Assembly: GCA_030679955.1 (NCBI GenBank)
Contig: JAUXSF010000018.1
Location: forward strand, 4,320-68,319
Source of the DNA: Chlamydiales bacterium
GTDB lineage: Bacteria; Chlamydiota; Chlamydiia; Chlamydiales; JAJFMA01
DNA length: 64,000 bases
Reading direction: 5' to 3'
Position 1 is the stretch's first letter. Each line of letters begins with the position of its first letter. Below the pieces are notes generated by a model, which worked only from the letters and a program-made list of their open reading frames with translations, was not told where the DNA came from and did not search any database. A program made the translations under genes and the position numbers. Below, piece by piece: positions 56,117-64,000 of the stretch.

Positions 56117-57562
56117 ATGTATTTTGATCCTAAACTAATTCTTTCTGCAACTGATAGCACAGAAAAAACCTCGAGTTTACCCCAGGATCAAAGAGCGGTT
56201 CCTTTGAGTTTTCCTATGCAGCCCTTTGCACCAAATCCTTGGGGAACGCCCTCGCCGTCGCTACAAAATACGGTCGCCAGCAATATATCAGGAGCGAGTG
56301 TACTGGCTCCTAACCAAAGGCTATGCCCACCGCCTGTTGATTCAGTCCAGGTACTGCCACCGCCTTCGCCTTCCGATTTTGAAATATTGTGCGCCTCAAA
56401 AACGGTTACGCTTCAGGATCTAGCGTTTTTAGATGAAGACGCAGATCAGGAGACAGACATATTCGGATTCAATCAACAAGCCTGCGCTCCTTTAGGAAAG
56501 AAGGAAGAGGAGTACAATCAAAGACTGATAGATTTTGAAGAGGTGTTAACTAAAAATCCAGGCAAAACTAAATTTCAAATTAGCAAAAAATTAGCAAAAA
56601 AATGGGAGTGCTGCATTCCGACGGTCGATCAAATGAGAGCGCTGTGGGAGGGCGAGATCGAAACAAATTCTCATATAGAAAAGCTTCTCAAAAAATATGA
56701 TGAACTTGGAAATGGTGTAGGGCAAAGGGTAACTTATGCAAAAAAGAAAATACCAAAAGAAATAACTCATTTAGCGGAGCTTGTAAATAAACCCAATATA
56801 ACCAAGCGCGAAGTTAAAGAACAGTTAGTAAGCCTATGGAATTGCGAGAGAAATACAGTTGATGCAGTGTTCCGCAAATGGAAAAAAGACACACAAGAGG
56901 GCGCGGCGTTAGTTAACCAATATACCCTCCTCCCACGTGATAGAAAAACGTTCCCTGGTGTGATCGTCGAGGGCTTGACTGTAGCAGACCTTCCTTTGCC
57001 GGGCGATGACGAGGTATTAATGTTTTGTCAGGATCTCTTTCCAGATGACCTAGCGACGAATCGAACGAGCCTTAGCGAGAGAAATCTTCTGTCAATCCCT
57101 GGAGTATTCCCAGCGATCACAAAATCAAAGGGTACATCAAACTCACGAAGCCTAGCAGATAAAATTTCTGACTTTGACTCCCTCGTAGATGCGAGCCAAC
57201 ATAAGAATCAGGTCATACAGGGACTGATGAGCTTATGGGGCAAGTGCGAAGTAACAGTACTTACCCAGTTTAATAGGTGGAGATCGATGCGCGACTCAGC
57301 TGATATTCAGGCAGCTATAACAAGATATGATAGTCTCAAACATCATGTACCTGCTACGGTGCCAAAAGTTAACATGGAAAGATTTGCTATTCTACGAAGA
57401 GAATTAGATAAGCCCGGTATGTCGAAAGTTGGTCTGCATAAGTTGCTTGAAGGTGCGTGGGGGCTCAAGTACACGGGTGTGATGTACAATATTAGGAATT
57501 GGAGAAATCATCCAGATGCTAGCATCCAAGAAGTCATGCAAAAATACGAAAAACTTAACTAG
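56117..57562 (+). CDS. paralog with four 'KWGC'-type modules
   Basis: 481 aa with the same layout: a Pro-rich/acidic N-terminus, then modules at aa ~133-196, 213-270, 346-406 and 419-481 (KFQISKKLAKKWECCIPTVDQMRALW; REVKEQLVSLWNCERNTVDAVFRKW; NQVIQGLMSLWGKCEVTVLTQFNRW; KVGLHKLLEGAWGLKYTGVMYNIRNW). Confidence 0.7.
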   Translation: MYFDPKLILSATDSTEKTSSLPQDQRAVPLSFPMQPFAPNPWGTPSPSLQNTVASNISGASVLAPNQRLCPPPVDSVQVLPPPSPSDFEILCASKTVTLQDLAFLDEDADQETDIFGFNQQACAPLGKKEEEYNQRLIDFEEVLTKNPGKTKFQISKKLAKKWECCIPTVDQMRALWEGEIETNSHIEKLLKKYDELGNGVGQRVTYAKKKIPKEITHLAELVNKPNITKREVKEQLVSLWNCERNTVDAVFRKWKKDTQEGAALVNQYTLLPRDRKTFPGVIVEGLTVADLPLPGDDEVLMFCQDLFPDDLATNRTSLSERNLLSIPGVFPAITKSKGTSNSRSLADKISDFDSLVDASQHKNQVIQGLMSLWGKCEVTVLTQFNRWRSMRDSADIQAAITRYDSLKHHVPATVPKVNMERFAILRRELDKPGMSKVGLHKLLEGAWGLKYTGVMYNIRNWRNHPDASIQEVMQKYEKLN

Positions 57563-57690
57563 TATATCCTGAGCCGAAGTTACCAATATTCTTCTCAATT
57601 TCTCCTTGCATAGAGAGCCTCGTATTTGGAGGCTAAGGGTTACAAAGCGAATTGGTCCTGAGGCCCGAAGGGTCGCAATGATACAGTCCA
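57560..57690 (-). pseudogene. remnant of a fourth immunity-family gene
   Basis: The minus-strand frame reads ...DCIIATLRASGPIRFVTLSLQIRGSLCKEKLRRILVTSAQDIL, homologous to the conserved core of the three intact paralogs (CIGTGASMPGGPIRFITLSFQIRGGLSKEHLRKILLSSAQDIL). Both ends are missing. Confidence 0.6.
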
Positions 57691-63000: not shown

Positions 63001-64000
63001 GACATTTCCTAACACATCGTAAGCAAAACACGTCTTCGTGCCATTAGGAGCTACTTGATAGTTGAGAGAGCCATCCAAGTTATACCGGAAAGATTCTGAC
63101 GAGCCATCTGGATAAAGAACCTCAGTCGGTTTACCACGTAGGTTATAGCGTTTCAGAGTTCTGTTACCCATCACGTCTGTGATAGCGGTGACATTGCCGG
63201 CAATATCATATTCCAGATGAGTTGTGAGCTTTTTGTCGGGCAGTGTCGTACTGATACATCGACCAAAATCATCGAAAGTACAGGTGGTTTTTTGGCCCAG
63301 CACGTCCGTGTGGGACGTGCGGTTGCCCAGGTAATCATAGCTATAAGATTGGTGAAAGACTTCGCCAGAGTCACACTTAATCGATTCACCGATCAGCCTG
63401 TTCGAAAAATCATAAACATATGTTTTGTGATGATTCTGACCTAAAACCTTCTCTTTTATTTTGTTGCCATTGGCGTCATAACTTCGCTCGGTGATCTCTC
63501 CAAGAGCATTTTGCTCTAGAATCACATTGCCCATGTAGTCGTAGTCCCAGCACAAAGTATAGCAAAGCTGATCGTCTGCATTATAGTGCTCTTGACGCGT
63601 CAGCCAGCCTTCACGTGAATAAGTGTTTACCTTTTTACTAAGACGCTGCTCAGAGCTTGCTTTTTTATCCCAGAATGATTCTTCGACAACGTGGGGTAGA
63701 TGATGTGCCTCTAAGCTAGGCGTAACACGAGTTATTTTTCGAAAGGTAACCCCCGAAAGATCATTGGCGCGTTCTCCACAGCCATTATCCGATATGGATA
63801 AGATAAGAGTGCCATTAGAGTCATAGTCGCAAAAGTCGCGGAGATGTATTCTAAGGCCATCTCCAACTAGTTTAGACCTCACGAGGTTAGTGCCCGGTTG
63901 ATAGGTATATCTGGTCGTACAGCCATTAGGCAGCGTCTCACTCATCAATAAATGAAAGGCGTCCTGTGAATAGGTGCGTTTTATAACGCAACATTCACAG
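60004..64000 (-). CDS. Rhs/YD-repeat polymorphic toxin (5'-partial) with a Ser-hydrolase-like C-terminal tip
   Basis: The frame stays open upstream of the track start to the window edge. It contains dozens of YD-repeat units (YxYDxxGNxxxxxD, e.g. YSYDYLGNRTSHTD, YTYDGAGRQT, YRYDALNRLIEV). The core ends with the Rhs-type motif DPSGFEDGPNLYAYVHNSPLVHIDLYGL. A 265-aa tip follows (60007-60801). Confidence 0.9.
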   Translation of the reverse strand, partial: CECCVIKRTYSQDAFHLLMSETLPNGCTTRYTYQPGTNLVRSKLVGDGLRIHLRDFCDYDSNGTLILSISDNGCGERANDLSGVTFRKITRVTPSLEAHHLPHVVEESFWDKKASSEQRLSKKVNTYSREGWLTRQEHYNADDQLCYTLCWDYDYMGNVILEQNALGEITERSYDANGNKIKEKVLGQNHHKTYVYDFSNRLIGESIKCDSGEVFHQSYSYDYLGNRTSHTDVLGQKTTCTFDDFGRCISTTLPDKKLTTHLEYDIAGNVTAITDVMGNRTLKRYNLRGKPTEVLYPDGSSESFRYNLDGSLNYQVAPNGTKTCFAYDVLGNVIRRDVYDASGKILTTSTATYQGNLLVSEVDPNGNTKHYTYDGAGRQTVVATEHTWTRYEYDSLGRKYRTIQWVGPSEDDISVTAHEFDLLDRIIEERIEDGKGNVYTRTQTAYDLAGNPCSTTIFTAAGPATTCALYNPLGKPSEVVDALGNRTLTRYDYSGKTLRVTVIDPIGQQAITEHDIFGHPTQITRKDMFGQEIAHTSYLYNPHGKLVKQTDTALLDGKAIREMVTEWQYDSIGRLVTLIEAAGSPLRRVTYYSYNAFGEKVTDIHTDGSEINYHYDSMGRLGSYKSSDGSVSYQFTYDSNSNILQIFDGVHNTTTIRQYDRENRVVSETLASGLTMTYGYDGLGRMGDLSLPDASSVRYCYDAGFLRNVARCDPSGNELYSHRYLDYDSAGQLTSAQMIKNAGDITYCYDALKRTTGIHSTHFEEHIPSDGYDAIGNLLIMQKKDAIGPSINRYTYDTLYQLASEEGAFNHRYKYDSLNNRMKKDDVDYEVDVLNQLQTQQDTSYDYDARGNRVEKQSPEESHRYRYDALNRLIEVQAGTQRWQYRYDSYNRRISKSHYDKDSRVSHQDYLYQDQMDIGTVEADKLTEFRMIGRGLGAEIGAAVAIELGDKLFAPLHDHSGNIVALVNADNGKVAEAYRYSAFGEASCYQPGWLWGWSPSKKHLSPWQFASKRYDAESKLTNFGRRSYDAEVGRWLTPDPSGFEDGPNLYAYVHNSPLVHIDLYGLCTERCAKCGRPLNGQQRHSTGYKQWDPQARRYTYGRGQRIYHCPNFEKITPRVPASRTGDLGEDRKKLEYGAIGFINGICNHFRDAFNHAMHISDLSGGFNVNFICNQTHNIIFDIMECILGVHHVTTRPVELLHKEWDKSLAAEPTILQICTSQGVIHVRNALLTYPEHLRNRIIVLAIAPAVYIDRDLCRQVIHYRAADPRRDFIPRCFDKRGEARAREQGTIRDVPSHKDASFFDHSISSPTYSDPIQHHIQQYTNSQGQRI

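Follow-up and report, generated by a model that had tools for sequence, protein, structure and literature searches.

An Rhs protein with a putative serine-hydrolase tip and a downstream array of exported immunity-like paralogs in an environmental chlamydia

The last part of a 64,000-nucleotide stretch of a Chlamydiales genome (GenBank assembly GCA_030679955.1, contig JAUXSF010000018.1, positions 4,320 to 68,319 of the forward strand; hereafter the window) carries an Rhs gene, three paralogous genes for exported proteins of about 180 amino acids, and fragments of toxin and immunity genes between and behind them. We consider it likely that this locus is a Sec-exported Rhs toxin–immunity system of an environmental chlamydia, independent of a type VI secretion system (T6SS), with a toxin that putatively acts in the periplasm. 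The locus is a new toxin–immunity pair within the known kind of Rhs polymorphic toxins rather than a new principle, and it belongs to a large family of such modules found essentially only in Chlamydiota. The original prediction, made from the letters of the window, was that the locus encodes an Rhs polymorphic toxin accompanied by immunity genes, both cognate and orphan, and by decaying tips, and comparative linkage now supports it.

Linkage was analyzed in about 50 loci, 46 of them found by scanning one genome per GTDB species with a 12-sequence alignment of the immunity proteins, together with four others. The scan loci are nearly all in metagenome-assembled genomes (MAGs) of Chlamydiota (Parachlamydiaceae, Parachlamydiales, Simkaniaceae and "Chlamydiia"), and the few short contigs labelled otherwise are probably mis-binned. 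This distribution, and an NTT/TLC ATP/ADP transporter elsewhere in the window, agree with the initial impression of an otherwise chlamydial genome. In six-frame hidden Markov model (HMM) searches the order of Rhs N-terminus, Rhs core, hydrolase tip and immunity homologue recurs almost everywhere, including at three loci on a single chromosome (OY969795.1). Where no toxin was detected upstream, the contig ends there or the Rhs protein has a more divergent hydrolase tip (L016 and L050); the exception is L035, an isolated partial immunity copy amid a long contig. Because the 180-aa proteins directly follow the same toxin domain in essentially every locus that extends upstream, they are not housekeeping lipoproteins unlinked to toxins, a possibility that had been raised at the outset. 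The toxin stop codon overlaps the immunity start codon (ATGA, GTGA or TTGA) at 47 of 59 junctions, and several others read TAATG. The overlap is therefore a family trait and implies translational coupling. All-against-all clustering of the flanking open reading frames (ORFs) of these loci identified no conserved secretion or delivery partner beyond Rhs and immunity; since nothing else is conserved nearby, the module is a self-contained two-gene cassette that occurs at varied chromosomal sites.

The Rhs gene continues past the edge of the window and encodes a protein of 1830 aa, whose N-terminus was read from an identical contig (L001:1324-6816). This contig comes from an independent Logan assembly (SRR13727519) and matches the window with 100% identity across 10,981 nt, although the two assemblies possibly have reads in common. 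It is therefore unlikely that the array is an artefact of one assembly. Inspection of the region upstream of position 64,000, as had been suggested, revealed a Sec signal peptide (MLRSLAMLTALLFFSSATLNA, cleavage |DS), read directly from the sequence. The full protein contains DUF6531 (Pfam, E = 2.8e-9) and RHS/YD repeats (E ~1e-54), with matches to RHS_repeat (PF05593, E = 5.8e-56, eight stretches), YD_repeat (TIGR01643, E = 3e-41) and RHS_core. Neither PAAR nor any other T6SS-type domain was found in the full-length protein, for which Pfam reports RHS_repeat and DUF6531 only. The core ends in ...PDPSGFEDGPNLYAYVHNSPLVHIDLYGL, and the variable tip begins after that boundary, which has the DPxGL-type form of Rhs toxins (...TPDPSGF...HIDLYGL in the checked translation). 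Among the 25 homologous chlamydial Rhs proteins whose N-terminus lies inside the fetched loci, 22 have a hydrophobic N-terminus of the signal-peptide type. Judged by these sequence features, the Rhs protein belongs to the signal-peptide class and not to the T6SS class. The export route, which the original prediction had left open, is thus partly accounted for by the Sec signal peptide and the lack of PAAR. Directly upstream of the Rhs gene and just past the end of the window, L001:329-1261 encodes an alpha/beta-hydrolase of 310 aa (Abhydrolase_1, E = 3e-22) whose N-terminus resembles a signal peptide; this gene is not kept beside Rhs in other loci.

The tip is predicted to be a serine hydrolase. 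An AlphaFold model built from a 39-sequence alignment has a predicted local distance difference test score (pLDDT) of 94.7 and a predicted template modelling score (pTM) of 0.92, and its Foldseek matches are alpha/beta-hydrolases (E ~3e-5 to 1e-3, TM 0.5-0.6). These fold neighbours include polyethylene terephthalate (PET) hydrolases, cutinases, polyhydroxybutyrate (PHB) depolymerase, carboxylesterases, a Francisella carboxylesterase/phospholipase and the Staphylococcus aureus Fph serine hydrolases. In the model Ser103 lies between a strand and a helix, and Asp154 and His188 come after the next two strands, so that the predicted order and placement of the three residues are those of a canonical alpha/beta-hydrolase triad. 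Ser and Asp are invariant among the 39 tip homologues and His is kept in at least 90% of them. A sequence search of the PDB with the toxin profile returned nothing meaningful.

By sequence, the tip is related to DUF687 (PF05095), a Chlamydiaceae family of putative inclusion-membrane (Inc) proteins that includes CT326, CPn0066 and others (PMC3048545). The match of the window tip itself (E = 2e-4, 20.3 bits) is below the Pfam gathering cutoff of 25, but 23 of the 39 tip relatives match the family, with a best E of 4.7e-18 and always at profile positions ~38-180 of 537. The window tip is therefore homologous to DUF687 but stands at the edge of the family. Both groups are restricted to Chlamydiota and share this hydrolase-like domain. 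DUF687 proteins (CT326, CPn0066/0069/0381/0882) differ in that they reportedly lack catalytic residues and end in six membrane helices (PMC11878206), whereas the Rhs tip has Ser-Asp-His and an immunity partner, and the Rhs protein stops 26 residues after the catalytic His, with no C-terminal multi-helix membrane domain of the DUF687 type. This makes the Rhs tip a stand-alone relative of the DUF687 hydrolase-like domain in which the catalytic residues are intact.

An exhaustive search with the toxin profile gave 2111 representative clusters (E<=1e-3), of which 640 reach E<=1e-30, mostly at the extreme C-terminus of proteins of 1700-2900 aa. The tips of chlamydial Rhs homologues vary from 35-50% identity down to barely alignable hydrolase subfamilies (L009, L016, L045, L047 and L050), and the Rhs protein of L044 has a tip of a different kind. 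Four loci have the hydrolase, paired with a lipobox-bearing immunity protein, on proteins other than Rhs (L038:581-2287, L040:8682-9980, L041:3069-4061 and L043:9018-9917). These proteins share an N-terminal motif, NWA..T..W.GR, and lack a signal peptide; those of L038 and L040 also have an Inc-like hydrophobic segment of ~35 aa and a Pro-rich linker. The non-Rhs forms may be intermediates towards the DUF687 architecture.

The immunity proteins constitute a new, Chlamydiota-wide exported family. A profile of the window copies finds 102 homologues, none of which has a Pfam domain; the few that come from named organisms are in Parachlamydiaceae or "Chlamydiales" genomes. Every full-length member begins with a signal peptide, a lipobox (e.g. 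LIFTGC or LSSCD) or a membrane anchor. In the window, the signal peptide of paralog 1 has a lipobox-like MIASGC, and those of paralogs 2 and 3 resemble signal-peptidase-I substrates (…CLA|IS and …CFA|VA). The early proposal that the paralogs are exported is therefore supported by the N-terminal sequences of the window copies and of the family. The AlphaFold model of an immunity protein, paralog 3, is a confident alpha/beta structure (pLDDT 91); a fold search of it against the PDB gave nothing significant (best E 0.012, TM <=0.35), and a PDB sequence search with the immunity profile found no match. The immunity proteins have diverged to a mean identity of 37%, compared to 47% for the toxins.

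The array downstream of the Rhs gene (Table 1) has the minus-strand order that was originally described, with the fourth-paralog stub reaching slightly further out. Paralogs 1-3 are mutually 43-58% identical (paralog 3 is 58% identical to paralog 2 and 43% to paralog 1), and in each of the three the six positions found invariant among 76 members of the family are conserved. The toxin fragments can be aligned with the end of the Rhs tip, as had been claimed: the 35-codon remnant has 63% identity to the last 35 Rhs residues (E = 1e-13; toxin HMM positions 176-208), and the 98-aa fragment has 38% identity to tip residues 164-263 (E = 3e-20; toxin HMM positions 110-205). The latter lacks the nucleophile Ser and has R at the position of the catalytic His (FFDRH). 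All three toxin-stop/immunity-start junctions read ATATGA, confirming that stop and start overlap as ATGA at each. A fourth paralog is also present as a remnant, with 77% DNA identity to paralog 2 over 99 nt.

Table 1. Coordinates of the Rhs gene, its toxin tip and the downstream array in the window
Feature	Position	Strand	Remarks
Rhs gene, 3' 3,997 nt	60004..64000	minus	frame open to window end, no stop
Rhs-associated core domain	60802..61017	minus	TIGR03696, Rhs residues 1494-1565, 62.1 bits vs cutoff 32.5
C-terminal toxin tip, 265 aa	60007..60801	minus	Cys-rich linker, then alpha/beta-hydrolase domain (~60013-60645, ~210 aa)
Proposed nucleophile Ser (Ser103, CTSQG)	60340-60342	minus	codon verified
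Proposed Asp (Asp154, RRDFI)	60187-60189	minus	codon verified
Proposed His (His188, FDHSI)	60085-60087	minus	codon verified
Immunity-like paralog 3, 188 aa, presumed cognate partner	59441..60007	minus	signal peptide; ATG overlaps Rhs stop; family HMM E 9e-56
Toxin-tail remnant, 35 codons, no own start codon	59333..59440	minus	HHDASYFDHSISSPTY...SSQGQSI*; stop overlaps next ATG
Immunity-like paralog 2, 185 aa, orphan copy	58779..59336	minus	signal peptide; family HMM E 6e-58
Orphan toxin fragment	58311..58622	minus	ORF 58311-58607 (98 aa); homology from 58622
Immunity-like paralog 1, 180 aa, orphan copy	57772..58314	minus	family HMM E 1e-53
Fourth-paralog stub, ~45 codons	~57554..57690	minus	…GPIRFVTLSLQIRGSLCKEKLRRILVTSAQDIL; family HMM positions 62-98, E 4e-7

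A 43-aa ORF at 58619-58750 had been read as a possible lipoprotein. It has no homologue in the related loci and its sole match, to the Rhs linker, is non-significant (E = 0.69); because it has no counterpart elsewhere, it is best taken as a chance ORF in the spacer. A scan of the array for promoters and terminators found fewer sites than in shuffled sequence, and PADLOC defence models gave no match. The stub ends where a convergent gene stops (57562). The product of this gene (56117-57562, plus strand) is 481 aa long, is Pro-rich at its N-terminus and contains about four internal repeats of ~90 aa (motif ...W..C...TV...F..W...); no family match was found for it beyond a faint one to the HMG-box. 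As its 3' end adjoins the stub, its insertion or extension may have truncated the array.

Arrays of toxin-tail remnants and immunity genes also occur in eight other loci (L003, L004, L007, L008, L019, L021, L029 and L032). In L003, five immunity genes follow Rhs, and before four of them lies a remnant of the toxin tail, its stop codon overlapping the start of the immunity gene; three of these remnants are called as 56-aa ORFs. The immunity paralogs of L003:8504-12040 and L004:349-3135 are near-identical in their first ~120 residues and sharply different in a block of ~40 residues near the C-terminus. The toxin remnants of the two loci differ mainly in their last 19 residues, and there is no simple unit-to-unit co-variation with the variable block of the immunity proteins. 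A different rearrangement is seen in Chlamydiales bacterium STE3 (L005:11114-11677), where, in an ORF of 187 aa, the signal peptide and N-terminus are of the Rhs type and are joined directly to the C-terminal half of the hydrolase tip. This ORF derives from a duplicated Rhs gene by internal deletion, and degraded immunity fragments follow it.

The original prediction attributed the array to repeated displacement of tips. Decaying orphan tips are indeed present, but repeated displacement is the weaker part of that claim. Classical orphan modules retain a core-encoding piece, which allows recombination to replace the resident tip with an incoming one. Such a canonical orphan is found in L002, where a full tip with a stub of the core and an immunity gene occurs and the Rhs body is lacking. 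The fragments in the window comprise only the last 35 or 98 toxin codons and have no homology to the Rhs core, and therefore duplication or unequal crossover followed by decay fits at least as well as tip displacement. Within each of the other arrays the remnants share one start point, and the starts cluster around toxin HMM positions 144-158. They do so in four independent sources, namely the sample shared by L003 and L004, and L019, L028 and L032. Such a pattern would be expected if a unit made up of toxin 3' end and immunity gene underwent tandem duplication or unequal crossover and the copies then diverged. The duplications must be old, since DNA identity between the units in the window is only 60-80%. 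Taken together, duplication and decay have better support than displacement of tips.

The mechanism that we propose for the exported toxin–immunity system is as follows. The RHS repeats would form a shell around the tip, which would cut itself free at the boundary of the core (...HIDLYG|L) by autoproteolysis; Rhs and Tc proteins that have been characterised likewise have a shell of repeats and a tip that is cut free at the core boundary. The tip may then act as an esterase or lipase on an ester substrate of the envelope from the periplasmic side, most likely a membrane phospholipid. A periplasmic-side attack is suggested because every immunity homologue is directed to the periplasm, as in the Tle/Tli pairs of T6SS lipase effectors and their inhibitors. 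The cognate immunity protein would bind and block the enzyme directly, and translational coupling would keep it on hand whenever toxin is made. Orphan paralogs could guard, in addition, against variant toxins that related strains make within a shared host cell. The fragments of toxin tails would be scars of duplication or recombination of units of toxin 3' end and immunity gene, and may provide homology for swapping the C-terminal helix of the toxin together with an immunity gene. The likelihood given in the opening paragraph refers to this overall picture, and is lower for the lipid substrate.

Several observations weigh against the proposed system or parts of it. The nucleophile motif in the window is CTSQG, whereas most relatives have CHSxG. 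The Foldseek matches of the tip are generic esterases with TM values of only 0.5-0.6, and the substrate is a guess. No outer-membrane or delivery component that would account for cell-to-cell delivery is conserved beside the module. The pair is not strictly Rhs cargo, since four loci carry it on a non-Rhs protein. In a mirror-tree comparison of 11 loci, the divergence of the immunity proteins correlates with that of the toxin (rho 0.71) and with that of the core (rho 0.77); because it tracks the core, the module seems to evolve mostly as a vertical unit and not by frequent tip swapping. In favour of the pairing, toxin and immunity still co-diverge after controlling for the core (partial rho 0.41, permutation p 0.018, n=11), a weak positive result with only 11 usable pairs and a core that also correlates.

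The toxin could instead be directed at the host, with the Rhs shell delivering a lipase or esterase to amoebal or other host membranes (e.g. in egress or inclusion remodelling) and the 180-aa proteins only shielding the envelope of the producer during transit. We think this unlikely, as one immunity gene suffices for self-protection, which leaves the arrays of diverged but intact orphan paralogs and tail scraps unexplained, and because the Rhs and immunity proteins use Sec signals and not an N-terminus of the type III secretion kind. It would, however, suit the obligately intracellular lifestyle implied by the NTT transporter, the lack of a T6SS-type N-terminus on Rhs, and the homology to predicted inclusion-membrane proteins of Chlamydiaceae (PMC3048545). 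Further points in its favour are the non-Rhs versions, two of which have Inc-like hydrophobic segments, an Ntox50 protein in the window that has no immunity gene, and the argument of Zhang et al. 2012 (PMC3482391) that the host is the target of most toxins made by intracellular bacteria. The non-Rhs versions, two with a segment that resembles a membrane anchor, also bear on the idea of a self-directed envelope hydrolase with a periplasmic inhibitor, serving membrane or lipoprotein remodelling or developmental lysis, with Rhs as a surface scaffold. Such a role is possible for the non-Rhs forms, and the largely vertical evolution of the module with the core and the finding that Euo, a regulator of development, binds an rhs gene of Waddlia (PMC4989314) are in keeping with it. 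For the Rhs-linked enzyme it appears very improbable, given that the enzyme follows the Rhs-associated core in the canonical toxin position, that several loci can occur in one genome (three in OY969795.1), and that orphan arrays and the fast divergence of immunity relative to toxin are hallmarks of conflict systems.

The array might also be a decaying relic in which only the Rhs gene and paralog 3 are functional and paralogs 1 and 2 are becoming pseudogenes. Decay is evident in both toxin fragments, which are dead (one has no Ser and an altered His position, the other is 35 codons long with no start), and in the fourth paralog, already reduced to a stub; the array also has no promoter or terminator signal above chance. 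Paralogs 1 and 2, however, are full-length and retain signal peptides, the six invariant residues and ATGA-coupled starts, which makes this explanation quite unlikely. These alternatives overlap with each other and with the toxin–immunity system that we favour, and the likelihoods we attach to them are not meant to add up to a whole.

The locus can be compared with several known systems. Like the Rhs/YD loci of E. coli, Dickeya dadantii (RhsA/B), Salmonella and Serratia (PMC3482391), it combines repeats with a core-bounded C-terminal toxin, an immunity gene next to it, and orphan toxin fragments and extra immunity genes further downstream. It differs from them in having a Sec signal peptide and DUF6531 with no link to PAAR or VgrG, in orphan fragments that lack core homology, in an esterase-type tip rather than a nuclease or deaminase, and in its obligately intracellular chlamydial setting. 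Sec export independent of a T6SS and an immunity gene downstream are shared with Bacillus subtilis WapA and other Rhs toxins with signal peptides (the type II secretion system or "T2SS" class). WapA, however, has a Gram-positive wall anchor, tRNase tips and cytoplasmic immunity, while the chlamydial system is in a diderm with exported immunity, in which the outer membrane also has to be passed. The closest analogue is provided by the T6SS lipase effectors Tle1-5 and their periplasmic Tli partners, which pair an envelope serine hydrolase with signal-peptide or lipoprotein immunity and frequently show immunity duplication. The tip does not belong by sequence to a Tle family (e.g. DUF2235), as only PF05095 was matched, and it is fused to Rhs with no T6SS-type domain. 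The TcB-TcC cocoon of the Photorhabdus and Yersinia Tc toxins similarly has an Rhs/YD shell and an autoproteolytically released C-terminal toxic domain that works independently of a T6SS. Tc toxins hit eukaryotic cells and have no immunity genes, whereas the window has an immunity array, near which no TcA-like translocator was seen.

Signal-peptide ("T2SS") RHS-linked polymorphic toxins in chlamydiae were already catalogued by Zhang et al. 2012 (PMC3482391). The authors reported that systems of this sort that include immunity genes are seldom found in endosymbionts and that Waddlia encodes numerous toxins but almost no immunity proteins, and concluded that intracellular bacteria do not compete with their own kind. 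They also described the domains Tox-ABhydrolase-1 to -3, with ABhydrolase-2, possibly the domain of the Rhs tip, in a Parachlamydia or Protochlamydia "independently of an immunity protein". Rhs proteins are predicted outer-membrane proteins in environmental chlamydiae (PMC2811131) and are among the largest Parachlamydiales orthogroups absent from Chlamydiaceae (PMC6171736). In the literature we found neither an identification of the tip as a DUF687-related hydrolase nor an account of the immunity family.

Other genes in the window include a second one of the toxin type, which is not linked to Rhs. Positions 1-816 (plus strand) hold the 3' end of a gene for a 469-aa protein (full gene L052:3362-4771) with a Sec signal peptide and a C-terminal Ntox50 domain (Pfam, E = 2.3e-12), a predicted RNase-type polymorphic-toxin domain. 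There is no immunity-like ORF between this gene and pheT (1020-3446). A 771-aa protein (45641-47956, plus strand) matches the HicA toxin domain in its last 50 residues (E = 4.7e-5, below the Pfam cutoff), the remainder being unmatched. The TLC/NTT ATP/ADP transporter (47946-49283, minus strand, E = 3e-70) is a hallmark of chlamydiae and rickettsiae, and an 895-aa ankyrin-repeat protein (20273-22960, minus strand) resembles Legionella Ank effectors, typical of amoeba-associated bacteria. A thiamine pyrophosphate (TPP) riboswitch is predicted at 50046-50152 (minus strand, 66.7 bits). The region 29130-33552 is partly colinear with L002:3220-7674 (MAG GCA_964512205.1), sharing a transketolase gene (65% identical) and then a URO-D gene. 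The third gene differs: the window has one for a HemN-type radical-SAM enzyme, the MAG one for a DPRP/photolyase-type protein. A gene for a Kelch/PA protein follows in the MAG, and then the canonical orphan Rhs tip with its immunity gene; at the matching place the window has unrelated ORFs with no toxin or immunity homologue.

We speculate, and hold it to be doubtful as a whole, that environmental chlamydiae fight each other or other endosymbionts in shared host cells by means of a Sec-exported Rhs esterase, using a route independent of a T6SS, and that the DUF687 Inc proteins are catalytically dead descendants of this enzyme, derived through intermediates such as those in L038 and L040. One predicted serine-hydrolase domain is the main armament of the chlamydial Rhs family and is paired with a dedicated, exported and fast-diverging immunity family, often in arrays; the toxin family extends to hundreds to thousands of relatives. 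The immunity proteins, judged by their model, define a new fold. The pair is directly testable in E. coli, with no need for chlamydial genetics, and it poses the mechanistic problem of how a diderm delivers an Rhs toxin with no T6SS. It also provides a first clue to the function of DUF687, an uncharacterised family found in human-pathogenic Chlamydia. The module contradicts the view that intracellular bacteria hardly have immunity genes, and its hydrolase–immunity arrays would be a genomic signature of conflict between bacteria in a lineage thought to be sheltered inside host cells.

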